In this document: in pieces, positions 1,396 to 44,346 of the stretch
Layout of the letters: every line of letters starts with the position of its first letter
How positions within the stretch are numbered: position 1 is the first letter of the stretch
DNA from: a virus
Reading direction: 5' to 3' (one strand)
DNA: 44,346 nt
Virus record (IMG/VR): IMGVR_UViG_3300031087_000004
Position numbers and translations under genes: made by a program
The notes under the pieces: generated by a model
What the model saw: only the letters and a program-made list of their open reading frames with translations
What the model was told of the DNA's origin: nothing
Databases searched by the model: none

Positions 1396-1410
1396 TTTTC
1401 GTTTTTATAT

Positions 1411-1447
1411 GCAATCGTATAGATAAACCCCGGCAATCGTATAGAAT
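1411..1447 (+). promoter_or_regulatory. Two direct repeats of GCAATCGTATAGA (operator half-sites) plus a TAGAAT -10-like hexamer upstream of the Mor-like gene
   Basis: gcaatcgtataga at 1411-1423 and 1432-1444 (21-bp phasing). CGTATAG is one half of the 16-bp palindrome found at four other sites. TAGAAT at 1442-1447. Confidence 0.5.
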
Positions 1448-4733: not shown

Positions 4734-6891
4734 AAGGGCGAAGCCAGCGGCAAAGCCACAACCAAAGGCGGAGGATTACGGCCAATTCCGTAACCTTGCT
4801 GGGATCCTGTCTGCCGTCAAAAGAGCGCAGCGCAACCTGATCCCGCCGCCCGTCATGCTGCCCAGCGTGTGGGCTGAGAAGAATATCAAGATTCCTACCG
4901 GCAACGCCGTGCCGGGGCCGTACCGCATCCACAACGCCCCCTATCAGCGGGAGCCTATGGACATGCTGGTGCAGCCCGACTGCTACCGCGTTTCCCTGAT
5001 GTGGGGCGCGCAGGTGGGCAAAACGCTGCTGGCGCTTTGCGTGCAAGCGTATTGCATCGGGGCCAGCCCGCGCAGCCAGATGATGATGCAGCCCAGCGAA
5101 AACGATTTAGGCGTGTGGCTGGAAACGAAATTTAACCCGCTGGCGGAAGACTGCAGCGCCGTGGCTGACGCGCTGGCGCAGGGTAAAGTTGATAACAAAA
5201 AAATGAAGGGCTACCCGGGCGGCTTTATGATGTTTGCCTGGGCTGGCTCGCCTAAAACGATGCGTGGACGTTCGGCCCCGACCATTATCTGCGATGAGGT
5301 GGACGGCTACGAACGGACAAGCGAGGGGCACCCGGTTAGCCTGCTGTGGCAACGTTCGGCAACGTTCGGTGATATCCGTTTCCTGATCGATATCTCAACG
5401 CCAACCATCAAAGGGGAAAGCTACATTGAAAAATCGTTTGAAGCTGGCGATCAGCGTCGTTTCTATGTGCCTTGCCCACACTGCGAAGCGCATGTGCTGC
5501 TGGAGTGGGAGCACATACACTGGCCTGGCAGGATGGGCAGCGACGAAGAGAACATTAAAGCACTGGACGAAATGGAGCCAGAAAAGGCCCATTTCCACTG
5601 CCCGGACTGTGGCGCGCAATGGACAGACGGCCAGCGCATTGCGGCGATACGCAAAGCGGAAAGCGTAGGGGCTGGCTGGAAAGCCACCCGCCCGTTTACC
5701 GGTCACGCCAGTTACCACCTGAACGAGCTGTACAGCACATTCCGCAAGATACCGGCGATCGTGCGTGACTACATCGACAAGCTGAAAACCGACGACCTGC
5801 AGACGTTTTACAACGTATCGCTGGCGCTGACGTGGGACGAAAAAGGGGAAAGCGCAGACCCGGACAGCCTGATGGCGCGCCGCGAGATTTACAGCGAGGA
5901 TGGATCCTTTGACGTACCGGCCGGCGGCTTGTATTTAACGGCCGGAATCGACATGCAGATCGACCGTCTGGAATGTGAAGTGGTGGCGTGGGGGCTGGGC
6001 GAAGAAAGCTGGAGCCTGGGTTACTGGGTATTCTGGGGCGACCCGCTGACCGGGGATCCGTGGGATCAGCTGGACGACCTACTGGAAAGCCATTTCATCC
6101 ACGAAACCGGCGCAAAGCTGCGGATCATGGGCGCATGCCTCGATACTGGCGGTACAAACGGAATGACGTCTGCGGCCTATGCATATGCGAAGGGCCGTAC
6201 TGGCCGCCGCCTCTTTGCGATAAAAGGCGTGCCCGGATGGGGCAAAGCGGTGGCAGAGAAGCCCAGCCGCCGCCAGTCTGGTAAAGACACCCGTAAAGTG
6301 GACTTGTGGCCGATCGCGGTTGACGAAGGAAAGTTGATTGTTACGCGCCGCCTGAACAAGACGGAGGCAGGCCCGGGTTATTGCCACTTCCCGGACGATC
6401 GGCACGAAGAATGGTTTAACCAGCTGACCGCTGAAAAGATGGTCACTAAATACGTTCGCGGGCAGCCGGTTCGCGAGTGGAAAAAGCCAGACCGCGCCCG
6501 AAATGAGGCGCTGGACTGCCGCGTGTACGCTTATGCCGCCCTGAAAATTACCGCCCCCCGCCTGCTTAAGATTGCCCAGAGGCTGGGAATTGATACCACT
6601 GGCGCAGAACCAGAGCGCCGCAAGAGGCTTAAAACCGTGCCAAAAATGCCAAAATCCGAGACAGAATTGCCACAAACCGATACAGCGGTACCAGAAACGC
6701 CAGTTTTAGCGAGCTTTGCGCCAGAACCGGAGGAAAACGAACCAGTGGAGGTGGTGCAGAATGCCATCCCGCACAATGACAAACCAGCCACAACAAAGCA
6801 GAATCGACCACGCTTACAATCAAAAGCCGTAGCCGGGAAGAAGGCAAAAAAAGCCGGTGGCGGCGCTAACTGGGTGAAAGGGGGCTGGTGA
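4705..6891 (+). CDS. terL: Terminase large subunit, GpA family, with a low-complexity C-terminal extension of about 90 aa
   Basis: ggagg lies 9 nt before ATG 4705 (an alternative in-frame ATG is at 4684). Walker-like GAQVGKT. The zinc-ribbon pattern CPHCEAHVLLEWEHIHW...FHCPDCGAQW is typical of lambda gpA-type terminases. Confidence 0.9.
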   Translation: MGLTTKTKSKRAKPAAKPQPKAEDYGQFRNLAGILSAVKRAQRNLIPPPVMLPSVWAEKNIKIPTGNAVPGPYRIHNAPYQREPMDMLVQPDCYRVSLMWGAQVGKTLLALCVQAYCIGASPRSQMMMQPSENDLGVWLETKFNPLAEDCSAVADALAQGKVDNKKMKGYPGGFMMFAWAGSPKTMRGRSAPTIICDEVDGYERTSEGHPVSLLWQRSATFGDIRFLIDISTPTIKGESYIEKSFEAGDQRRFYVPCPHCEAHVLLEWEHIHWPGRMGSDEENIKALDEMEPEKAHFHCPDCGAQWTDGQRIAAIRKAESVGAGWKATRPFTGHASYHLNELYSTFRKIPAIVRDYIDKLKTDDLQTFYNVSLALTWDEKGESADPDSLMARREIYSEDGSFDVPAGGLYLTAGIDMQIDRLECEVVAWGLGEESWSLGYWVFWGDPLTGDPWDQLDDLLESHFIHETGAKLRIMGACLDTGGTNGMTSAAYAYAKGRTGRRLFAIKGVPGWGKAVAEKPSRRQSGKDTRKVDLWPIAVDEGKLIVTRRLNKTEAGPGYCHFPDDRHEEWFNQLTAEKMVTKYVRGQPVREWKKPDRARNEALDCRVYAYAALKITAPRLLKIAQRLGIDTTGAEPERRKRLKTVPKMPKSETELPQTDTAVPETPVLASFAPEPEENEPVEVVQNAIPHNDKPATTKQNRPRLQSKAVAGKKAKKAGGGANWVKGGW
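6761..6804 (+). promoter_or_regulatory. Late-region 20-bp element, copy 1 (ATGCCATCCCGCACAATGAC) plus a phased -10-like hexamer
   Basis: 20-mer at 6761-6780; ATGACA at 6776-6781; 17 nt; CAGAAT at 6799-6804. Embedded in the terL 3' extension, about 85 nt upstream of the next gene. Confidence 0.5.
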
Positions 6892-26623: not shown

Positions 26624-26652
26624 TTGACCGCAGTTATACGCCCGTATAGACT
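26624..26652 (+). promoter_or_regulatory. Early promoter candidate with operator palindrome (site a)
   Basis: TTGACC at 26624-26629; 17 nt; TAGACT at 26647-26652. tTATACGccCGTATAg at 26634-26649 fills the spacer. Confidence 0.55.
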
Positions 26653-26689
26653 CCATATGAACGTTGCCACCCCCGGCAACCATATGGAG
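26651..26689 (+). promoter_or_regulatory. Leader hairpin that pairs with the Shine-Dalgarno sequence of the first early gene
   Basis: ctccatatg(26651-59)/catatggag(26681-89) plus inner gttgcc/ggcaac, giving 15 bp with a 3-nt bulge. The GGAG at 26686-89 is the SD for ATG 26698. Confidence 0.5.
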
Positions 26690-26697
26690 TAACCCAG

Positions 26698-29853: not shown

Positions 29854-30147
29854 ATGATTAACGCGTTATTTATGGGCGGCGTTGCCGATGGCAAACGCAT
29901 GCAGGTGGCCGACAACGTGCAGCGGGTTACTATCCCGGAAATGCCGGATTTAGTTTCCCTGGCTGCAAGCCCGACGCCGCCTGATGTTATCCCGACCTTT
30001 AAAGAAACCACTTATTACCGCGTAGACGGCATTTTTTTACGAGATACCGCCGTTTTTACGCCTAAAATGAACCCGACCATCGGCGACCTTATGCGCATGC
30101 TGCTGAATGGGTACCGCCCGGAGGCCGATCGAAATGCTGAGCAATAA
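29854..30147 (+). CDS. Hypothetical small protein overlapping the integrase start (an RDF/excisionase role is possible but unsupported)
   Basis: ATG 29854 after agaggtg. 97 aa, with a 14-nt overlap with int. Confidence 0.45.
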   Translation: MINALFMGGVADGKRMQVADNVQRVTIPEMPDLVSLAASPTPPDVIPTFKETTYYRVDGIFLRDTAVFTPKMNPTIGDLMRMLLNGYRPEADRNAEQ

Positions 30148-31348
30148 CGACATTAAAAAGGCGGTGGCAAACGCCACCGGCACCCAGTGGATCACCGACA
30201 GCAGCGAGGGTTACGGCAAAGGTAGCCTGGTGCTGAAAGTGACTGCCGGGAAGAAGGGCACGACGGCGGCGTGGTTTATCGTCTGGACGGTGGCGGGCAA
30301 ATTGCACCGGCACAAAATCGGCAACCTGGGCGACGTGGTAGCCAGCGAGGCCCGGGAGATTTACCGCGAGTTTGATTTGTCTGATCCGGCAGCAGAGAAA
30401 CCGACCACTGGCGGAACGGTGCTGGATTTGTTTTCGAACTATATCGATCACCTGGCAGACCGTGGCGCGCGAAGCGTTGACCAGCTGCGGCGCATTTTGA
30501 TTACCGGGCAGAATAACGTCGCTTCGCAGCTGGGATCTGACCGGGAGGCCAGCACGATTAAGCCTGACGACGTGGTGGTGATCCTCTACCACGTGAATGC
30601 TGCCGGTAAAAAACGCATGGCCGACGCCGTGCGCACCGCGATAAACGCCGCGTTTAACTGGGCTATCCAGAGCCGGTTCGACTACACGGACAAGCGCGCA
30701 CGCGACTGGGGGATCACCACCAACCCCGTGGCGGTGGTGACGAAAGACCGCAGCGCCAAAGTGGCCCGCGATCGCAACCTGAAAGCGGAGGAATTGCGCG
30801 CTGTCTGGAACTACGAAAACGCGCTGGCCGGTGACGTGATGCGGCTGATCATCTGCTGCGGGCAGCGCGTGCTGGAAACGCTGAGGATTGAGGGGCGCGA
30901 CGTCGATCTGGACGCCCGGATCTGGACGCAGCCAGCAGAGAAGACGAAAGGCGGCACGCGTTCGCATGCGGTACCGCTGCCGGATCAGGCGGTGGCCATA
31001 CTGGCCAGGCTCAAAGAGAAGCACGGAGACGGGTACCTATTCCCGGCGAAGGGGGCAAAAGAGTGCCCGCATATTTCGCTGACGACACTCAACCGCGCCA
31101 CGCAACGGGTACCGGGGGCCGAACCTTTCCAGGCGCGTGACCTGCGCCGAACGTGGAAGAGCCGAGCCGGTGACGCTGGGATCCCCCGCGACATGCGCGA
31201 CATGATCCAGCAGCACTTTAAAGGCGATACCGGCAGTAAGTTTTATGACCGTTACGACTACGCGAAGGAGAAGCGCGAGGCAATGGATAGCTGGCAGGCA
31301 TGGCTGGATAGTAACGTTACGAACAATTTGCATTCAGATGATTCTTAA
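30134..31348 (+). CDS. int: Tyrosine integrase, P4-type (N-terminal arm-binding DUF4102-like domain)
   Basis: ggagg lies 9 nt before ATG 30134. N-terminus: LSNNDIKKAV...GSLVLKVTAGKKGTTAAWFIVW..GKLHRHKIGNLGDVVASEAREIYRE. C-terminus: ARDLRRTWKSRAGDAGI...QQHFKGDTGSKFYDRYDY..EKREAMDSWQAWL (R..HxxR..Y catalytic pattern). Confidence 0.88.
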   Translation: MLSNNDIKKAVANATGTQWITDSSEGYGKGSLVLKVTAGKKGTTAAWFIVWTVAGKLHRHKIGNLGDVVASEAREIYREFDLSDPAAEKPTTGGTVLDLFSNYIDHLADRGARSVDQLRRILITGQNNVASQLGSDREASTIKPDDVVVILYHVNAAGKKRMADAVRTAINAAFNWAIQSRFDYTDKRARDWGITTNPVAVVTKDRSAKVARDRNLKAEELRAVWNYENALAGDVMRLIICCGQRVLETLRIEGRDVDLDARIWTQPAEKTKGGTRSHAVPLPDQAVAILARLKEKHGDGYLFPAKGAKECPHISLTTLNRATQRVPGAEPFQARDLRRTWKSRAGDAGIPRDMRDMIQQHFKGDTGSKFYDRYDYAKEKREAMDSWQAWLDSNVTNNLHSDDS

Positions 31349-31462
31349 ACTAGATTAACCAGACCGATGCAGCGGGATCCGCCTATTTGTTTTTTGTTCG
31401 GTTGCGTGGTGGTGCGAGGTGGGCGGATCTCGCTGTGTCGTCAACACCAGGGCAGTGCGTAA

Positions 31463-31494
31463 GCCGGTACTCTACGGGGTACCGGCATTTTTTT
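31463..31494 (+). terminator. Rho-independent terminator downstream of int
   Basis: gccggtac-tctacggg-gtaccggc followed by a and seven T. Confidence 0.85.
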
Positions 31495-31516
31495 GGCCTA
31501 AATTCACGGGTGGCAA

Positions 31517-31548
31517 TTGACATATGGATGCGGCAATGCAAATATACG
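31517..31548 (+). promoter_or_regulatory. Candidate sigma70-type promoter for the recombination/replication operon
   Basis: Perfect TTGACA at 31517-31522. The AT-rich aatatacg at 31541-31548 is a possible -10 and contains a TATACG operator half-site. The -10 assignment is uncertain. Confidence 0.35.
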
Positions 31549-31575
31549 TCCGAACCAACCAAAAAGGACAATCAC

Positions 31576-32937
31576 ATGCAACCAGGTATTTACCAAAATA
31601 TCAGCAATGACGCATACCATATGGGGCCGGGAGTCAGTAAGACCGACCTTAAACTGGCTGAGAAATCGCTGAAAACCTATCGCGCCATTAAAAACGGCGA
31701 AATCCCCAAGAAAGAAACCATCTACAAGGATCTGGGCAAAGCGTTTCACGAACTGGTCCTGGAGCCGGAAGAGTTTAAAAAGCACTATTGCAAGCCGCTG
31801 ACCATTGAAGCCGCAGAGCGCCAGGGCATCAAGGTGCTGGACAGCAGCGAAAAGATTCTGGCGATGGTTAATGACCTGAACCAGATTAAACGCGATGAAT
31901 TCACCGAGCAGGGGATCATTACCAGCCCCGACGTGCTGGTGGAAATGCTTAATGAAATGAACAAAACCCGCCTGCCAAAACTGAGCACCAGCGGCGCTAA
32001 AGCAGCACTGATCGAAGTGATTACCCAAAACTGGGATTCGCAGATGGGTGATGTGCCTGAATATGGCGTGCTGTCAGCCATGAAAGGCCCGGATTTAAAA
32101 AACATTATCGAACGTCTGAACGAAAGCCGCCCGGGCCTGCTGTCTACCAGCGGAAGCCGTGACGACCTGGCCCAGCGCCTGCGCGATAACGGAGCATCGA
32201 TCGCGTGCAGTTGGGAAGTGGAAAAAATGAACATGGAAGCCACGGGCCGCCCTTACTTCCTGGGATCCGGCAAGACCAAAGCGGAAATGATCGACTGGCT
32301 GAACGGCGAGCAGTACAAAGGCGGCAACTGGCGCAGCTGGGAAATGGTTAAGGCAGAGTGGGCGGAGAACAACCCGGATCGAACCATCCTGACCGAAGAG
32401 GAATGGACGAAAGTTCACGGCATGCGCGACGCCCTGCTGGATCACCCGTGGGCGCGTAAGTTGCTTTGGCCGCAAAAAGGTGGCGTGGCTGAGCAGTCAA
32501 TTTACTGGACGGATAAAGAAACCGGCGAGTTATGCCGCTGCCGTCCTGACTTTATGCGCTACGACAACCGCCCGGTGGATTTGAAGAGCGCCAACGATGC
32601 CAGCGAAGAAGGATTTAAAAAGGCGATCGAAACCTACGGCTACGACATGCAGCAGGAATTTTATCTGGACGGCATCGAAGCAGCCACGGGCGTGCGCCCG
32701 AAGAATATGCCGTTTGTGGTGGTTGAGTCCGAAGCGCCTTACCTCGTTAACGTTCACGTGTTAGGGCTTGAATATTGCTACATCGGGAAAGGGCGGTACC
32801 GGACGGCGCTTAACGCCATCCATGAGGCGAAGGAATCCGGCGAGTGGCCCGGGTACCCGGAAGACATTCACGTGCTGGAGCCTCGCCGTTTTTACGCGCA
32901 GCAGCACGCGCAGTATCTGCCAGACAGTAACTGGTAA
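31576..32937 (+). CDS. RecE-family (exonuclease VIII-like) PD-(D/E)XK 5'-3' exonuclease
   Basis: ATG 31576 after aagga. MQPGIYQNISNDAYHMGPGVSKTDLKL is the typical RecE C-terminal domain start. ...CRCRPDFMRYDNRPVDLKSAND...YGYDMQQEFY is the nuclease core. Confidence 0.75.
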   Translation: MQPGIYQNISNDAYHMGPGVSKTDLKLAEKSLKTYRAIKNGEIPKKETIYKDLGKAFHELVLEPEEFKKHYCKPLTIEAAERQGIKVLDSSEKILAMVNDLNQIKRDEFTEQGIITSPDVLVEMLNEMNKTRLPKLSTSGAKAALIEVITQNWDSQMGDVPEYGVLSAMKGPDLKNIIERLNESRPGLLSTSGSRDDLAQRLRDNGASIACSWEVEKMNMEATGRPYFLGSGKTKAEMIDWLNGEQYKGGNWRSWEMVKAEWAENNPDRTILTEEEWTKVHGMRDALLDHPWARKLLWPQKGGVAEQSIYWTDKETGELCRCRPDFMRYDNRPVDLKSANDASEEGFKKAIETYGYDMQQEFYLDGIEAATGVRPKNMPFVVVESEAPYLVNVHVLGLEYCYIGKGRYRTALNAIHEAKESGEWPGYPEDIHVLEPRRFYAQQHAQYLPDSNW

Positions 32938-32976: not shown

Positions 32977-33972
32977 ATGACCCAGGAAAAACCATTAGTT
33001 TTAGCCATTCGTCGCGCCATGCGAGACGCCGCCCGCCTTGTGATCGCCTTTGCTGGGATCAGCGGCAGCGGCAAGACCCGCACGGCGATAGAGTTCGCTT
33101 TCGGGCTTGCCAACTACGACGCGGATAAAATCGGCTTTATCGACGCCGAAAACAAACGCGGAAGCCTTTACGCAGACTGTCTGGACAACCACCCGAAAAA
33201 CCCGGAAAAGAAACGCTTCTGGATCGGCGACCTGCAGCCGCCATTCAGCCCGAGCCGATACGCCCAGGCTATCAAGCAGTTTGAAGACCACGGCGTGGAG
33301 GTGCTGATCATCGACTCCGCGACGCATGAGTGGGAAGGCGAAGGCGGCGCGCAGCAAATTGCCGAAGACAACGCCACGCAATGGGGCAAGAAAGACTGGG
33401 CAAAAGCGAAAGACGCCCATAAGAAATTCATGAACACACTTTTACAGTGCAACATGCACGTGATCGTCTGCGTGCGCGCCCGTGAAAAAACCAAAGAGGA
33501 AAAGAACGACAAAAACAAACTGGTGGTGACGTCGCTGGGCATCCAGCCGATCCAGGAAAAGAATTTCATGTTTGAAATGTCAGCCAGCGTCATGATGTGG
33601 AACGAAGGCCAGATGCAGACCGCGTACAAAGTACCCGGCGAGTTAAAGCCATTCCTGGGCCGTGGTGAGGGTTATATCACCAGCGAAGACGGCTACGCAG
33701 TGCGCAAATGGGTGGAGGGTGGCAACCAGATCGACCAGAAGGTGGAGAAACTGCGCAACAAACTGGTGGGCGAAACCGAAGCAGGCGAAGCCAACCTGCG
33801 CGAAAAATGGGGCATGCTGTCAGACGCCCAGCGCACTGCAGTTACAGAGGATTTCTTTGAAACGCTGCTGACCAGCGCCAGAGAGTACGACATGCAACGC
33901 GCAGATGCTGCAGACGCGAAAGCGGGCGGCGCTGGCGTTACCGACTTAACCAATTCACTGGCTGATGACTGA
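32977..33972 (+). CDS. AAA_24 / Sak4-like RecA-fold ATPase (putative single-strand annealing/recombination protein)
   Basis: Walker A GISGSGKT and Walker B VLIIDSATHEW. 331 aa, located between the exonuclease and SSB. Confidence 0.7.
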   Translation: MTQEKPLVLAIRRAMRDAARLVIAFAGISGSGKTRTAIEFAFGLANYDADKIGFIDAENKRGSLYADCLDNHPKNPEKKRFWIGDLQPPFSPSRYAQAIKQFEDHGVEVLIIDSATHEWEGEGGAQQIAEDNATQWGKKDWAKAKDAHKKFMNTLLQCNMHVIVCVRAREKTKEEKNDKNKLVVTSLGIQPIQEKNFMFEMSASVMMWNEGQMQTAYKVPGELKPFLGRGEGYITSEDGYAVRKWVEGGNQIDQKVEKLRNKLVGETEAGEANLREKWGMLSDAQRTAVTEDFFETLLTSAREYDMQRADAADAKAGGAGVTDLTNSLADD

Positions 33973-34325
33973 TGAAAGAACAGCGCCTTACCACGAAGCA
34001 GCTGGCTAAACGCCTGAATGTTTCGACCAGATCGATCCGGTTATGGCGCGCAAATAAAAACGGCCCCAAGTGGGGCCGTTACGGTGCGCGCGTCGAATAC
34101 TTACTAACTGACGTGGAAGCGTGGGAGCAGGACAGGGCAAAAGCGATGCAGGAGCATTACAGCACCAAGCAGCTTGCCGGACTCCTGGAATTATCCGAAA
34201 CCACGATTATTATGTGGCGCTGGCAAAACAAAGGGCCAGCCTACAACAAGGCGGGGCGGCGCGTTTCGTACCCCAAAAACACTACCATTGAATGGGCGAA
34301 AGAAAATGGCTATGAAATCGAATGA
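33972..34325 (+). CDS. DNA-binding protein with two tandem excisionase/MerR-type (HTH_17-like) domains
   Basis: LTTKQLAKRLNVSTRSIRLWRANKNGPKWGRYGARVEYLLTDVEAWE and YSTKQLAGLLELSETTIIMWRWQNKGPAYNKAGRRVSYPKNTTIEWA form an internal duplication. Confidence 0.65.
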   Translation: MKEQRLTTKQLAKRLNVSTRSIRLWRANKNGPKWGRYGARVEYLLTDVEAWEQDRAKAMQEHYSTKQLAGLLELSETTIIMWRWQNKGPAYNKAGRRVSYPKNTTIEWAKENGYEIE

Positions 34326-34620
34326 GACAGTAAACGGGCGCTACTTTTTCCGCTGGAGTTCCCCAGAGGGGCAGGCAGCGTTAAAAGCGGCCAATATCGC
34401 GCTGGCATCCAGTGGCCTGCAGATCCACTACGACACCGGCATGGCCCCGGGCCTGCTGGGCGAAGAAGTGCCGGACGTTCACACCGAAACGCACCAGCAG
34501 ACAGTCGCCACGGCCCAGCGCGTGGAGCAGGAAGAGCAGCAGCGCCAGCAGGAAGTCGCTGATCGTATTCGCCAGGCGGAAGCAGCCGCCGCAGAACGGG
34601 CAAAGAAAACCAATGAGTAA
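34306..34620 (+). CDS. Hypothetical protein (Q/E-rich C-terminus)
   Basis: ATG 34306, 104 aa, overlaps the neighbouring genes at both ends. Confidence 0.5.
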   Translation: MAMKSNETVNGRYFFRWSSPEGQAALKAANIALASSGLQIHYDTGMAPGLLGEEVPDVHTETHQQTVATAQRVEQEEQQRQQEVADRIRQAEAAAAERAKKTNE

Positions 34621-36903: not shown

Positions 36904-36924
36904 TAAAAAAGCATACATATGTTA

Positions 36925-36946
36925 TTGACCTATACGCCCGTATAGA
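36925..36946 (+). promoter_or_regulatory. Operator palindrome, site b, abutting a -35-like TTGACC
   Basis: TTGACC at 36925-36930 and CTATACGccCGTATAG at 36930-36945. Intergenic, upstream of ORF 36998. A GC hairpin (ggcggc/gccgcc, 36962-36979) follows. Confidence 0.55.
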
Positions 36947-36997
36947 TTACCTTAGTTAACAGGCGGCGCACCTGCCGCCCTTAACTGAGGATCCACC

Positions 36998-38362: not shown

Positions 38363-38365
38363 GTG

Positions 38366-38394
38366 TTGCCTATACGAACGTATAGATATATATT
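38366..38394 (+). promoter_or_regulatory. Early promoter candidate with operator palindrome (site c)
   Basis: TTGCCT at 38366-38371; 17 nt; TATATT at 38389-38394. CTATACGaaCGTATAG at 38370-38385 occupies the spacer. Confidence 0.55.
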
Positions 38395-38447
38395 CTTTTC
38401 ACGGGGCAGCGTGGGGCCGCCCGGACAAGCAAAAATGAGGTAACACC

Positions 38448-39951: not shown

Positions 39952-40339
39952 ATTTACGAACGCTAAGTTGGCCAAAGAAATCGAACGTTTAAACCGTGAA
40001 GTAACCAGCCTTAAATCGGCGCTGTTGCTGGCTGCCGACAACAACAGCAAAGCCGAGCAGCTGGAAACGATGCTGGAAGGCGCAGCCGCCGAAAACGCCC
40101 ACCTGCTGGCACGCCTTCACCAGCTGGGCGATCCGAACATGTGCGATCTGGTAGTTGAGCTAATGGCGCTGAAAGTGACCGGCAAACTATGCGCCCGCTT
40201 ACAGGCCCGAGGGTACCGTGAAGCAGTTGCCGATGTTCGCGCCGTGGCACGCACCGCCCGCAACCCGCAGATTTACGACCTGATGATGGATATTTGCGGC
40301 CAGATGGATGCCAAAGCCGCACGGGTGGAGGCGCTTTAA
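39938..40339 (+). CDS. Hypothetical coiled-coil protein
   Basis: GGAGGG lies 8 nt before ATG 39938. 133 aa, with heptad-like LAKEIERLNREVTSLKSALLLAA. Confidence 0.55.
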   Translation: MITNKFTNAKLAKEIERLNREVTSLKSALLLAADNNSKAEQLETMLEGAAAENAHLLARLHQLGDPNMCDLVVELMALKVTGKLCARLQARGYREAVADVRAVARTARNPQIYDLMMDICGQMDAKAARVEAL

Positions 40340-41463
40340 TGGCGGCCTATTACAACGAGTTCAACAAGGACGCAGCCGCCTGGCTGCGTGTTCTCATTCA
40401 GGAAGGGCTGATCGCCCACGGATATGTCGATGAAAGATCAATCGAAGAAGTTACCCCCGGCGACCTGCGAGGCTTCACCCAGTGCCATTTCTTCGCGGGC
40501 ATCGGCGGCTGGAGTCTCGCATTGCGAATCGCCGGAGTTGCTGACAATACACCGTGCTGGACAGGATCACCCCCCTGCCAGCCTTTCAGCGTCGCAGGAT
40601 TGCAACTTGGAATGCACGACGCAAGACACCTTGCCCCAGTCTGGCTGCGGCTTATTGACCAGTGCCAGCCTTCAAAGATCTTTGGAGAGCAGGTTAAAGC
40701 GGCAATTAAGCCCGGATGGCTTGATCTTTTATTCGGCGAAATGGAAAGAGCGGGCTACGCCTGCGGGGCGTCAGTATTGCCAGCTGGCGCTAGTGAAGCG
40801 CCCCACCTGCGCGACAGATTATTTTTCGGGGCAGTGCGAAACGTGGCCCACACCGATAGCGAACGACGCGAAGGGCAGCGACTACAGCACCAGCAACGGG
40901 GAGAAGATATTGAAGTTGCCGGGAGTGGCGAAGCTGGCAGCATGGACGACGCCCAGCCATTCGGACGGGACGCGGGGCGGCACCGGGATAACGGAGAACA
41001 TGACGGGCAGCAGCCTGGTGCAGCAGGCCAAACTGGCGAGCTGGCCGACGAGCAGCGCGACGGATCACAAGGGTGGCTACGAGGGTGGCAGGATTCGCAA
41101 CGGCAAACTTTCGGTGGACAGGCTGGACGTGGCCGCGCAGCTGGCGACCTGGCCAACGCCTTTGACCGTTCCCGAATCGGACGCCAGCAGGGGCCAACTG
41201 TCTGGCAGCATGAGGCAACAGCTGGAGCCGTGCAAGCCGTCAATCCGTGGGCAAGTCTTAAACGCCAATGGGATCGATGTGACTGGATCTTATGCCTCGA
41301 TGGCAACTACCGGCCCATTGAACCCGGCACTTTCCCGCTGGCTAATGGGGTACCCGCCCGAGTGGGACGATTGCGCGGTTATGGCAATGCCATCAGCCCG
41401 CAAATCACGTCAGAATTTATCGAAGCCTTTAACGGAGCCTGCAACGATGCGCGCCGCGCCTAA
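40339..41463 (+). CDS. dcm: DNA (cytosine-5) methyltransferase, frame-1 reading (374 aa)
   Basis: TAATG overlap with the upstream gene. Motif I FFAGIGGW, motif IV GSPPCQPFS, motif VI-like IFGEQV, motif VIII PHLRDRLFF, motif X RLRGYGNAISPQITSEFIEA. The middle third is G/R/Q/D-rich and uses many rare codons. Confidence 0.7.
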   Translation: MAAYYNEFNKDAAAWLRVLIQEGLIAHGYVDERSIEEVTPGDLRGFTQCHFFAGIGGWSLALRIAGVADNTPCWTGSPPCQPFSVAGLQLGMHDARHLAPVWLRLIDQCQPSKIFGEQVKAAIKPGWLDLLFGEMERAGYACGASVLPAGASEAPHLRDRLFFGAVRNVAHTDSERREGQRLQHQQRGEDIEVAGSGEAGSMDDAQPFGRDAGRHRDNGEHDGQQPGAAGQTGELADEQRDGSQGWLRGWQDSQRQTFGGQAGRGRAAGDLANAFDRSRIGRQQGPTVWQHEATAGAVQAVNPWASLKRQWDRCDWILCLDGNYRPIEPGTFPLANGVPARVGRLRGYGNAISPQITSEFIEAFNGACNDARRA

Positions 41464-41533
41464 AGTGCGCATCCGGGCGGGATCCTTTGAGCACGACGGC
41501 TGGCTGGCGCTGGCCGCGCAAAAGAGGAAGTGA
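40424..41533 (+). other. Overlapping frame-2 ORF (369 aa) whose middle and C-terminal parts carry methyltransferase target-recognition-like repeats
   Basis: ETWPTPIANDAKG, AAWTTPSHSDGTRGG, ASWPTSSATDHKGG and ATWPTPLTVPESD repeats, then LNPALSRWLMGYPPEWDDC. Good codon usage over 40840-41370. The stop at 41531-33 abuts the next gene's SD and ATG. Confidence 0.5.
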
Positions 41534-42109: not shown

Positions 42110-42130
42110 CCAAAAAAATCTGAAATAATT

Positions 42131-42146
42131 CTATACGTGCGTATAG
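42131..42146. promoter_or_regulatory. Operator palindrome, site d (CTATACGtgCGTATAG)
   Basis: Perfect 7+2+7 palindrome in the 42110-42196 spacer. Possible -35 CTGAAA (42120-25) and -10 TATAGG (42142-47). Followed by the GGTGAT..ATCACC hairpin at 42146-42165. Confidence 0.55.
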
Positions 42147-42196
42147 GTGATGGTCTACTATCACCTTGCGCACTTTTTCTTTGGAGCTAAGAAACC

Positions 42197-42388
42197 ATGA
42201 CCAACCCGAATCAGGAATTAATCGACTTTATGAAGGACAACGCCCTGACCCCGAAGGACGTTGCCGAAATGCTGGGCGTGAATGTAGACACCGTTTACAT
42301 GTGGCGCGCCAGCAATGGCATTCGCGTTATACCTGCAGCCCGTTTCGAATTGCTGCAACTCAAAACGGCAGCAAAAAAGACTGCGTAA
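42197..42388 (+). CDS. Small HTH DNA-binding protein (Cro/excisionase-like)
   Basis: 63 aa. LTPKDVAEMLGVNVDTVYMWRASNG is a helix-turn-helix. Lies directly downstream of operator site d. Confidence 0.65.
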   Translation: MTNPNQELIDFMKDNALTPKDVAEMLGVNVDTVYMWRASNGIRVIPAARFELLQLKTAAKKTA

Positions 42389-42414: not shown

Positions 42415-44346
42415 ATGGCTAAAAAATCATACAACCCGCTAACGGTTGACCAGATCCGACGCATGCTGACCTACATCGACGCCGATTGTTCGCGCGAAGA
42501 ATGGGTGGACGTCGCTATGGGCGTTATGTCTGAGCTGGGCGACGCAGGCGAAGAAGTCTGGATGGAGTGGAGCCGCACCAGTACGGCAAAATTCAACCTT
42601 TCAGATGCACGCAGCACCTGGAAGTCTATCGGCGCTGGCGGAAAGACGATCGGCACCGTGTGGCACATGGCTGCCCAGAAAGGATGGGCGCTGGATAAGA
42701 GCGAGATCCAGCAGCTGCCAGAAGAGGAAATGGCCCAGCGTATTGCCAACCGCGAGGCAGCCGAAAAGGCAGCCAAAGAAGCGCGACAGGCTGATGCCGA
42801 TAAGGCACGCGACAGGGCAAACAATACGTGGAACGCGGCAGCACCTTGCGGCGATCACCCATACCTGCAGCGCAAAAAGGTGAAGTCCCACAACCTCAAA
42901 GTGGGCGACTTCGCGCTGGAGAAACGCGACGGCACCTACAGCACCCAGAAAAACATGCTGCTGATCCCGGTTATGTCGCTGGACGGCACGATCCACAACC
43001 TGCAAGCCATCTGGCCGAAAAAGCCAAAATGGGCAGAAGGTGGCAGCGATAAGCTGTTTATCAAAGGCGGCCTGGTGGGCGGTCACTTTTTCATAATCGG
43101 CAACCCCGGCGACGGCGACGGCACCGTGGCTTTTTGTGAGGGTTACGCAACCGGCGCAGCAATCCGGGAGGCAACCGGCTGGTGCGTGGTGATCTGCTTC
43201 AACAGCAACAACCTGATGCCGGTAGCGGAGCAATTCGCCAAAGAATTCGTGGGCGTGCCTTTCGTGGTCTGCGGCGATAACGATCGCTGGACGACGACGA
43301 CGGTTAACGGCCAGAAGGTGAATAACCCGGGCGAACTGGCCGCTAAAAGCGTGGCTAACGTGATCCGCGGGCGTTGCATCATTCCCCGCTTCACAAAGGA
43401 AACGCTACAGGCTAACACCGTGACAGACGACAAGGGCAGGACGCGCGGCCCTACCGACTTTAACGACCTTTTAGTGCTGGAAGGCGAAGAGCAGCTGGCG
43501 CGCCAGTTATCGGCGAAGGTGGTAGAAATGGCGAACATCAACCAAAAAAATAAATCCCCGGAGGAATCGACCAACCCGTGGGCAAACGAAGAATTTACGG
43601 TGCTGGGGCATAACCACGGCAATTATTTTTACCTTTGCCACGGTAGCCGCCAGGTGATCACCATGACGGCAGCGAAGCACACCAAAAATAACCTGATGGA
43701 ACTCGCAAGCCTCGAATGGTGGTACTCAATGTACCCGGTAAAGGGCGCGATCGACTGGGAGAAAGCCACCAACGACCTGATGCGCTTATGCCAGCAGCGC
43801 GGCATCTATTCGCTGGAAAAGATGCGCGGGCGTGGTGCGTGGTGGGACGACGATCGCGCGGTCTATCACTTTGGCAGCCATCTGCTGGTAGACGGCGAGG
43901 AAGTGGAAATTACCGACTTTAACAGCCGGTACACGTACCAGCAGGAACTGCCACTACCGACGCCAGCCGACGAGGCGCTAACCGACGACGAAGGGCAGGG
44001 GCTGCTGGATCTGGCAATGTCGTTTCGGTGGAGCGTGCCCGCGTCTGGCTGCTTACTGGCTGGATTCGTGGCGCTGGCACCTATCTGCGGTGCACTGCGC
44101 TGGCGGCCCCACCTGTGGCTTACCGGTGGCGCTGGCTGCGGTAAATCGACGGTGCTTAACGAATACATTAACCCGCTGATGCACGGCATTAACATATTCG
44201 CGCAGGGCAACAGTACAGAGGCAGGGATCCGCCAGCGACTGGGTGGTGATGCCCGTCCAGTGTTGTTCGATGAATCCGAGTCAAACAACGAACGCGAGGC
44301 GCAGCGCGTCCAGAACATCCTTTCGATGGTTCGCCAGGCATCCAGT
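42415..44346 (+). CDS. Primase-helicase, 5' part (PriCT-2-like N-terminus, TOPRIM primase, DUF927/P4-alpha-like helicase). Continues at 2..979.
   Basis: ATG 42415 after aagggg. The frame is open to the window end. EEWVDVAMGVMSELGDAGEEVWMEWSRTS..F...W (PriCT-2 pattern). TVAFCEGYATGAAI...VVCGDND (TOPRIM E...DxD). Walker A TGGAGCGKST and Walker B PVLFDES. Confidence 0.88.
   Translation, partial: MAKKSYNPLTVDQIRRMLTYIDADCSREEWVDVAMGVMSELGDAGEEVWMEWSRTSTAKFNLSDARSTWKSIGAGGKTIGTVWHMAAQKGWALDKSEIQQLPEEEMAQRIANREAAEKAAKEARQADADKARDRANNTWNAAAPCGDHPYLQRKKVKSHNLKVGDFALEKRDGTYSTQKNMLLIPVMSLDGTIHNLQAIWPKKPKWAEGGSDKLFIKGGLVGGHFFIIGNPGDGDGTVAFCEGYATGAAIREATGWCVVICFNSNNLMPVAEQFAKEFVGVPFVVCGDNDRWTTTTVNGQKVNNPGELAAKSVANVIRGRCIIPRFTKETLQANTVTDDKGRTRGPTDFNDLLVLEGEEQLARQLSAKVVEMANINQKNKSPEESTNPWANEEFTVLGHNHGNYFYLCHGSRQVITMTAAKHTKNNLMELASLEWWYSMYPVKGAIDWEKATNDLMRLCQQRGIYSLEKMRGRGAWWDDDRAVYHFGSHLLVDGEEVEITDFNSRYTYQQELPLPTPADEALTDDEGQGLLDLAMSFRWSVPASGCLLAGFVALAPICGALRWRPHLWLTGGAGCGKSTVLNEYINPLMHGINIFAQGNSTEAGIRQRLGGDARPVLFDESESNNEREAQRVQNILSMVRQASS
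44220..44346. repeat. Second copy of the 127-bp terminal overlap
   Basis: Identical to 1..127 by direct comparison. Confidence 0.95.

Follow-up and report, generated by a model that had tools for sequence, protein, structure and literature searches.

Introduction

Control of early phage promoters by a small dimeric helix-turn-helix (HTH) repressor on palindromic operators is textbook phage biology and conceptually ordinary. Here we analysed the IMG/VR virus record IMGVR_UViG_3300031087_000004 (44,346 nucleotides; called the window throughout), in which four copies of a 16-bp palindrome, sites a to d, stand upstream of early operons. We consider it probable that these palindromes are the operators of one phage-encoded regulon and that a 63-amino-acid (aa) HTH protein, encoded downstream of site d, binds them and represses the early operons in the manner of Cro.

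The lambdoid Cro proteins (434 Cro, lambda Cro) are likewise small HTH proteins expressed from an early promoter. Their palindromic operators of ~14-17 bp overlie early promoters, which they repress, their own included, and 434 Cro was among the fold matches of the 63-aa protein. Unlike the triple clusters at OR and OL, however, the sites described here are four dispersed single operators (with tandem pairs at b in relatives). The window phage further differs in having no partner CI that we could find, no divergent promoters and all genes on one strand. The 63-aa family has no detectable sequence similarity to Cro, and its C-terminal LELLELKL helix is its own.

Anti-CRISPR-associated (Aca) proteins are dimers that repress their own strong early promoter; the aca genes follow anti-CRISPR genes and control that one operon. 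Aca1 and Aca10, phage HTH proteins of ~60-80 aa, were the best structural matches of the 63-aa protein [template modelling (TM) scores 0.74-0.76], and the title of a Protein Data Bank (PDB) entry (7c0g) names a 14-bp palindromic DNA target of Aca1. In contrast to aca genes, the 63-aa gene is the first of a primase operon, and the four operons behind the sites carry genes for replication, recombination and methylases. The controller (C) proteins of restriction-modification (R-M) systems are small dimeric HTH proteins of the XRE type with palindromic boxes 5' of their own gene; the boxes are paired, and one operon is sequentially activated and then repressed. C.BclI, C.AhdI and C.Esp1396I were among the fold matches of the 63-aa model, but no R-M endonuclease context was seen around its gene.

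True homologues of the 63-aa protein (36-46% identical) are the 'transcriptional repressors' of Iiscvirinae/Jilinvirus phages (ep3_0014, Arya gp45, MQ4_50). They are encoded at the same position 5' of primase, with the same layout of operator, terminator and -10 hexamer, and their operator arms read TTTAC or TTTAA as against TATAC in the window clade. In Arya and MQ-4, unlike the window phage, there is a cI-like gene, and the recombination module is encoded on the other strand. The RefSeq name 'transcriptional repressor' is homology-based only, and no experimental study of this gene was found in the BASEL paper or in a limited literature search. Small myoviruses of the Iiscvirinae type are poorly characterised, with a lifestyle called 'enigmatic' and perhaps facultatively temperate (10.1101/2024.09.12.612763). 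Gene control in this phage group (Jilinvirus/Iiscvirinae-like small myoviruses and the uncultured integrase-bearing clade of the window) has had no description so far; the new map given here comprises four promoters with their operators and names a candidate for the repressor.

Results and discussion

Four palindromes in the intergenic gaps of the early region

A preliminary description of the window had listed four 16-bp sites, all in intergenic gaps upstream of the operon starts 26698, 36998, 38448 and 42197. Searching the window returned the 16-mers as written. YTATACGnnCGTATAG has four copies (starts 26634, 36930, 38370 and 42131), and TATACGNNCGTATA has exactly four matches (26635, 36931, 38371 and 42132) and matched in 0 of 100 dinucleotide-preserving shuffles. 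The gaps, too, were as described, at 26624-26697 (a), 36904-36997 (b), 38363-38447 (c) and 42110-42196 (d). Sites b, c and d are perfect matches to CTATACGnnCGTATAG, from which site a deviates by a T at position 1. When the pattern was loosened to TATAC-N4-GTATA with one mismatch allowed, the sole extra match in the window was TATGCAATCGTATA at 1408. GTATA/TATAC occurs 22 times in the window compared with ~55 times expected from base composition, and eight of the 22 occurrences are inside the four operators. The operator arm is depleted in the genome outside regulatory sites.

The window represents a circular genome; 127 bp overlap at its ends, leaving 44,219 bp, and the GC content is 56%. The real genes are all on the plus strand. 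Site a is found behind the last tail gene (a gpD-type baseplate hub), at the head of the early region, and site b behind the helicase gene. Site c heads an operon with nuclease, Dam methylase and C5 methylase genes, and the genes of the 63-aa HTH protein and primase form the operon behind site d. Coordinates are collected in Table 1.

Conservation in related phages

The contig IMGVR_UViG_3300013102_000018, ~92-93% identical to the window over the early genes, has all four sites. Inside its palindromes only the central dinucleotide differs, reading CA for CC at b and GA for AA at c, and the regulatory gaps are almost invariant. In four syntenic contigs (L192, L193, L194 and L196), whose tandem-HTH protein is 65-77% identical to that of the window, the palindrome is present at every orthologous gap covered by the contig. 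Three short contigs encoding 63-aa homologues of 73-81% identity cover only site d, and here the palindrome is kept ~50 nt 5' of the gene. Behind the methylase gene, a further degenerate site is found in L193 and L194. The four syntenic contigs also have CTATACGnnnGTATTG at a second position of site b, over the -35 hexamer and 18-19 bp from operator b, where the window has a degenerate remnant (Table 1).

Lack of conservation in related phages had been named beforehand as grounds for abandoning the operator reading; instead, the palindromes were kept at the orthologous gaps in all of the seven to eight relatives found. Across 30 palindrome instances, T2, A3, T4, A5, C6, G11, T12, A13, T14 and G16 never change, G7 and C10 are each present in 25, and the centre and both flanks vary freely. 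The original notion was of a 7+2+7 palindrome; the true invariant core is TATAC-N4-GTATA plus G16, with positions 7 and 10 varying in relatives.

Protein-anchored scans of viral, metagenome and genome collections yielded one near-identical contig only, and no prophage. Scanning viral contigs for the exact 16-mer gave mostly single chance matches, in addition to the close relative and one unrelated contig of high GC content. This contig, IMGVR_UViG_3300010367_000378 (87.9 kb, 68-70% GC), has the palindrome at at least three places (L039:372, L052:348 and L056:3908), and the L052 copy shows the geometry TTGACA-tact-palindrome, as at site a. Window proteins tested against portions of it gave no match (E >= 0.037).

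Promoter hexamers under the palindromes

The sites had been described as overlapping -35-like and -10-like hexamers, and in relatives we found these hexamers conserved at a spacing of 17-18 nt. This overlap, too, came out in favour of the operator reading, for which it was the second check made. For Pa, relatives have -35 TTGAC(C/A/G) and -10 TAGnnT spaced by 17-18 nt. Promoter Pb was missed by the sigma-70 scan and is supported by its -10 hexamer TAnnnT, which is invariant in five relatives; the forms seen are TACCTT, TACTCT, TAATAT, TATTAT and TAATCT, with -35 TTGAC(C/A) and a spacer of 17-18 nt. At Pc the 17-nt spacer is kept between TTGnnT and TATATT or TATAGT. Pd has an 18-nt spacer and a poor -35 hexamer (TATACG), located at the left arm of operator d.

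The two-fold symmetric sites therefore lie over the promoters that they would regulate, including that of the candidate protein itself, whose start codon is 51 nt downstream of site d. The right arm covers the -10 hexamer at site a, the palindrome fills the spacer at b and c, and the left arm is at the -35 position at d. Measured against the -35 and -10 hexamers, the palindrome is thus displaced by up to ~11 nt from one site to another. Because the register differs, the palindrome is better understood as a protein-bound operator than as an element recognised by RNA polymerase.

Readings in which the palindrome is not a protein operator at all are highly improbable. They would make it a hairpin in RNA or DNA, a recombination site of the integrase or the promoter of some non-host polymerase. 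A hairpin would agree with site d, the right half of which is in a terminator stem with a compensatory change, but the isolated 16-mer folds weakly (-3.9 kcal/mol), and the palindrome arms are conserved in sequence and not co-varying. The end of the motif, TATAG, resembles T7-type promoters. However, besides terminase, structural genes and primase, the genome has no open reading frame (ORF) large enough for a single-subunit RNA polymerase, and the register of the motif varies against start codons as well as hexamers; a T7-like promoter was rejected on the missing polymerase gene and the variable register. TATACG/CGTATA is also contained in the arms of loxP. Core sites of tyrosine recombinases, though, need a spacer of 6-8 bp, compared with 2 bp here (4 bp for the invariant core), and four recombination sites per genome would scramble the phage genome. 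A lox/att-type site, normally single in an element, was rejected for the spacer of 2-4 bp and the four copies per genome.

Hairpins and a terminator interleaved with operator d

A GC-rich leader hairpin had been reported after each site. This held for a, b and d (z = -7.5, -5.8 and -6.2), but the hairpin after site c was not better than shuffles (z = +0.3), and the structure at d is a terminator, not a simple leader. For hairpin a, RNAalifold gave 14 pairs, one of them compensatory (U-A to C-G); in the close relative, the stem of hairpin b is kept and the loop altered. Transcripts started at Pa or Pb would lack the outer 5' arm, so that their ribosome-binding site would be free, while in read-through transcripts this site would be sequestered or processed.

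At site d, a two-tier GC-rich stem-loop is directly followed by a T-run, TTTTTCTTT, and the stem shows covariation: RNAalifold gave 15 pairs, four with compensatory changes. One of these four is found in L070, where the G7-to-A change in operator d is matched by C to T in the 3' arm of the terminator. The terminator ends the upstream operon and shares bases with operator d, whose right half is the base of the stem. The centre of site d (TG) is invariant, unlike the variable centres of the other sites, because it is constrained by the terminator stem. A-runs 5' of the sites were considered as terminators and rejected; two of the four are coding, and their distance to the palindrome varies.

The layout of operator, hairpin and -10 hexamer at site d recurs in MQ-4, Arya, ep3, Persinger and PPpW-3. 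In every relative examined, the small-HTH gene is preceded by an operator and then a GC-rich hairpin with the -10 hexamer in its loop or 3' arm. The variants of this hexamer are TACTAT, TATCAT, TATAGT and TACAAT, and the T-rich run usual after the hairpin is absent in Persinger and PPpW-3.

The 63-aa protein as the probable binder

Three HTH proteins were found among those scanned with Pfam and PHROGs: the 63-aa protein, a protein with two HTH_17 stretches in tandem and a 156-aa HTH_23 protein (1479-1949). The 63-aa protein matches Pfam HTH_17 with 28.4 bits (cut-off 27), over the stretch 17-43 only, and its PHROG annotation is 'transcriptional repressor'. By sequence it belongs to no curated family above threshold except, marginally, HTH_17. 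A PDB profile search reached XRE-type proteins only at E = 0.02-0.7 and gave no significant relatives, the best matches being WD-repeat artefacts. The family has 87 homologues, in which the C-terminal motif IPxxxLELLELKL is strongly conserved; the LELLELKL helix is plausibly a dimerisation helix.

The AlphaFold2 model of the protein has four helices [predicted local distance difference test (pLDDT) score 87]. Foldseek matched it in the PDB to Aca10 (TM 0.76), Aca1 on a 14-bp palindrome (0.74), R-M controller proteins, SinR, DdrO, 434 Cro and P2 C. TM scores were 0.68-0.76 and match probabilities 0.97-1.0, and several of the entries were deposited as complexes with palindromic or operator DNA. 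The proteins matched best are small HTH dimers with palindromic binding sites. A winged helix of the HTH_17 kind would have a beta wing; the model shows no beta strands, and the NCBIfam profile 'excise' scored 23.0 bits, below its cut-off of 28.8. The predicted fold is small, all-helical and of the Cro/XRE type.

Homologues with 36-46% identity are found in Serratia phage MQ-4, Enterobacter phage Arya, the Escherichia coli phages ep3, ECOO78 and HeidiAbel, Salmonella phage PT1 and the Pseudomonas phages Persinger and PPpW-3. In all five neighbourhoods read (MQ-4, Arya, ep3, Persinger and PPpW-3) the gene is just 5' of the primase gene, and several phages with a homologue are those that also resemble the window in the terminase region. 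MQ-4, Arya, ep3 and contig L204 have palindromes of their own at equivalent positions, namely behind the helicase and primase genes and 5' of the HTH gene, so that one copy is always 5' of the HTH gene.

Operator and protein vary together across these clades. In the window clade, YTATAC-N4-GTATAG goes with the recognition helix VNV(D/N)TVYMWRA. The corresponding pairs are GTTTAC-N4-GTAAAC and RS(D/A)QTVRIWSC in MQ-4 and L202, TTTAA-N4-TTAAA and RTVSTVRVWRC in Arya and L204, and ATTTAC-N4-GkAAAT and RTEQTVLIWRC in ep3. MQ-4 has three copies of its palindrome (five matches at <=2 mismatches, compared with 0.97 expected), and Arya, L204 and ep3 also have three each. In L202 the only full copy is the one 5' of the HTH gene; of the other two positions, one has a half-site and the other a variant with one mismatch. 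Arya and MQ-4 have a cI-like gene, which is missing from ep3, L202 and the window clade. Judged by these comparisons, of the DNA-binding proteins found only the small HTH protein both varies with the operator and is present in every genome examined. The 63-aa protein, one of two binders suggested initially, is therefore favoured, by this co-variation and by its predicted likeness to dimeric palindrome binders. The four operator classes, paired with four recognition helices, are a natural specificity series in which DNA recognition by a very small repressor could be studied or engineered.

The other binder suggested in the preliminary description was the tandem HTH_17 protein, whose two domains might together form a built-in pseudo-dimer. 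Its single chain contains two HTH_17 stretches, and the protein is encoded in every relative of the window clade that covers the region (L060/L061 and L192-L196). However, the HTH/recognition-helix stretch of its single-domain orthologues in MQ-4, Arya and ep3 is nearly identical while the operators differ, its two domains are only ~30% identical to each other and fit a perfectly symmetric site poorly, and its gene has no adjoining operator. We regard this protein as an unlikely binder and disfavour it mainly for the constancy of the orthologous helix stretch.

A host transcription factor, for example a dimer of the TetR family or a variant LexA-type dimer, could also bind the sites and make the early promoters respond to host physiology. 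The identical 16-mer adjoins at least 22 TetR-family genes in bacterial genomes, is found 5' of lexA in a Spirochaetota metagenome-assembled genome (L080, L143) and is part of a conserved intergenic locus of enterobacteria (Kosakonia, Phytobacter, Pseudescherichia and Pantoea) with 58-60% GC, compared with 56% in the phage. But the phage operators change between clades in step with a phage protein, and among the genome matches listed most are single and at chance level. The enterobacterial LexA box, moreover, requires CTG...CAG, where the phage sites have CTA...TAG. A host factor thus seems quite improbable. LexA has the consensus CTGT-N8-ACAG, with CTG and CAG invariant, and an SOS box was ruled out as all 30 instances read CTAT...ATAG. 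There was no TetR_N match among the early-region proteins scanned, and the sites do not qualify as TetR operators of the phage.

The bacterial matches are of some interest in themselves. Among those listed (L074-L191), the exact 16-mer CTATACGnnCGTATAG adjoins the TetR-family genes mentioned above (mostly in Actinobacteria) and at least seven genes for extracytoplasmic function (ECF) sigma factors (in Alphaproteobacteria). Since it adjoins TetR, ECF sigma factor and lexA genes, unrelated dimeric regulators appear to have converged on one palindrome. The enterobacterial locus (L121:2905-2955 in Kosakonia; also L079, L091, L112, L137, L140, L167 and L189) reads TTATACGAAGGTATAC-CTATACGAACGTATAG-TTATAC between an isochorismatase-like gene and a divergent amidohydrolase gene, and its middle 16-mer is exactly site c of the phage.

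A proposed early repression circuit

In the circuit that we propose, the host sigma-70 RNA polymerase would start at Pa, Pb, Pc and Pd after infection and transcribe four early operons on the same strand. Pd would express the 63-aa protein together with the primase-helicase gene. The protein would then bind YTATAC-N4-GTATAG, presumably as a homodimer formed through its C-terminal LELLELKL helix. With every operator inside a core promoter, the bound protein would block RNA polymerase, and all four early operons would be turned down, including the protein's own, in a Cro-like negative feedback.

Several points weigh against this proposal. Unrelated cellular regulators use the same 16-mer (TetR genes, lexA), and a host factor is conceivable. 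Pd has a poor -35 hexamer, and positive control at Pd alone is conceivable as well. In Pfam the 63-aa protein matches the excisionase/MerR-like HTH_17 family, no HTH_3 match marks its sequence as XRE, and an NCBIfam scan returned nothing above cut-off. The Foldseek E-values were weak (0.05-0.5), though with probabilities of 0.9-1.0, because the HTH domain is short. Finally, the co-variation rests on about four operator classes, and other phage proteins could co-vary too.

The 63-aa protein might instead activate from these sites, or both activate and repress like the R-M controllers; such a variant would concern Pd in particular, where TATACG stands alone at the -35 position. The best fold matches include controller proteins, which both activate and repress, and relatives have tandem operators at site b. 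At a, b and c, however, the -35 and -10 hexamers are good and optimally spaced, and a protein bound between or on them should exclude polymerase. The operator centre at Pd is near -30, whereas activators typically bind at -41 or -61. We consider this variant unlikely; an activating or dual role is possible at Pd only.

The binder of the sites had at first been thought of as an immunity or early-switch regulator. An early switch of the Cro type is the more likely role because Arya and MQ-4 carry a separate cI-like gene and because relatives with this protein family are reported never to lysogenise (10.1101/2024.09.12.612763). For an immunity function we found no support.

A possible fifth site at the putative late-activator gene

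The 156-aa HTH_23 protein is encoded at the place where relatives annotate a late activator, and 5' of its gene is a possible weak fifth site (Table 1). The site is largely kept in the close relative L060 and overlaps the promoter-like sequence TAGATA-16-TAGAAT. Outside the palindromes, CGTATAG has four copies only, two of which (1416 and 1438) are 22 nt apart at this site. Of the half-sites noted in the preliminary description, this pair remains notable. The one at 31543 is unremarkable, since CGTATA occurs 16 times compared with 15.4 expected. The degenerate palindrome and the direct repeat might extend the regulon to the late activator, which is speculative.

Going further, the 63-aa protein and its operators might be the only transcriptional switch of this integrase-bearing clade without cI. 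They would shut the four early operons and gate the late activator via 1408-1445, and they might maintain a prophage, with the interleaved operator d and terminator coupling upstream read-through to the protein's own promoter. We rate this extended scheme as rather unlikely. If true, it would offer a concrete handle on the 'enigmatic' lifestyle of small myoviruses of the Iiscvirinae type (10.1101/2024.09.12.612763).

Table 1. Coordinates of the regulatory features and candidate genes (positions in the window unless a contig label is given)
Feature	Position	Strand	Description and evidence
Operator a	26634..26649	.	TTATACGCCCGTATAG; pattern match; five relatives keep TTATAC(G/A)nnCGTATAG; right arm over -10
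Operator b	36930..36945	.	CTATACGCCCGTATAG; kept in five relatives; centre variable; G7 to A in two
Operator c	38370..38385	.	CTATACGAACGTATAG; relatives have YTATAC(G/T)nn(C/T)GTATAG
Operator d	42131..42146	.	CTATACGTGCGTATAG; six relatives identical; L070 differs at one base (G7 to A)
Degenerate remnant of a second operator, upstream at site b	36912..36927	.	CATACATATGTTATTG; intact form in relatives
Promoter Pa	26624..26652	+	-35 TTGACC (26624-26629), 17-nt spacer, -10 TAGACT (26647-26652); sigma-70 scan; operon start 26698
Promoter Pb	36925..36953	+	-35 TTGACC, 17-nt spacer, -10 TACCTT; comparison with relatives; operon start 36998
Promoter Pc	38366..38394	+	-35 TTGCCT, 17-nt spacer, -10 TATATT; sigma-70 scan; operon start 38448
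Pd -10 hexamer	42156..42161	+	TACTAT, across terminator loop and 3' arm; CTACTAT in 7/8 relatives, flanking stem co-varying
Leader hairpin a	26650..26690	+	10-bp outer and 6-bp inner stem; Shine-Dalgarno GGAG in 3' arm; RNAfold -22.7 kcal/mol, z = -7.5
Leader hairpin b	36950..36990	+	Shine-Dalgarno GAGG in 3' arm; RNAfold -25.1 kcal/mol, z = -5.8
Intrinsic terminator overlapping operator d	42137..42182	+	Outer stem 42137-42143/42167-42173, inner stem 42146-42153/42158-42165, T-run 42174-42182; RNAfold -23.9 kcal/mol, z = -6.2
Interleaved terminator and promoter loci	42137-42182; L197:36571-36625; L198:12500-12560; L199:7650-7700; L200 and L201, upstream of position 6001
63-aa HTH protein gene	42197..42388	+	Proposed operator-binding autorepressor; Pfam, PHROG, AlphaFold2, Foldseek, co-variation
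Tandem HTH_17 protein gene	33972..34325	+	Second candidate of the preliminary description, disfavoured; two Pfam HTH_17 stretches
Weak fifth site (possible)	1408..1445	+	Degenerate palindrome TATGCAATCGTATA (1408-1421); direct repeat CAATCGTATAGA (1413-1424, 1434-1445)

Other features of the genome

As described initially, the phage has an integrase and no recognisable CI-type repressor. The gene of the tyrosine integrase (404 aa; in the stretch 30134-31575) is in the middle of the first early operon and conserved across all clade relatives, and no cI-like gene was found in the window clade. Pfam and PHROGs scans of the early-region proteins detected no cI-like, TetR-like or RNA polymerase gene. 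Behind the integrase gene there are a strong terminator (31463-31486) and a gap of 227 bp, which could be the location of attP. Genomes of 185,579 bacterial and archaeal species yielded no prophage copy of the phage, and scans of the window for tRNA genes and Rfam families were empty.

The early region had no megablast match in phages or E. coli genomes. In distant blastn comparisons, the late region matched terminase and lysis genes only and the early region one methylase gene only.

The C5-cytosine methylase ORF (40339-41463) is overlapped by a second long ORF in another frame (40424-41533), while relatives have single genes of 352-423 aa at this locus. The overlap (40339-41533) may reflect a frameshift, a sequencing error or a programmed shift. 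A stretch of 298 bp (34320-34617) is missing in the near-identical relative, so that the gene at 34306-34620 is absent there, and the stretch 31869-32260 is also replaced. Judging from this absence and this replacement, accessory small genes are swapped within the early operon.

The primase-helicase gene (~925 aa) follows the 63-aa gene and runs from 42415 across the window end to 979. Minus-strand ORFs at 42471-44318 were rejected as spurious shadows of this gene. Just 3' of it and its terminator (1016-1033), the stretch 1080-1400 contains ~12 iterons, GGTTACAA / TTGTAACC, in both orientations, bordered by (TA)n tracts and a (GT/GC)n tract (1197-1228). This region is probably the replication origin. 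Analogous repeats (GGTCACC, GGTAAC) are found at the equivalent place in Arya, ep3 and MQ-4.

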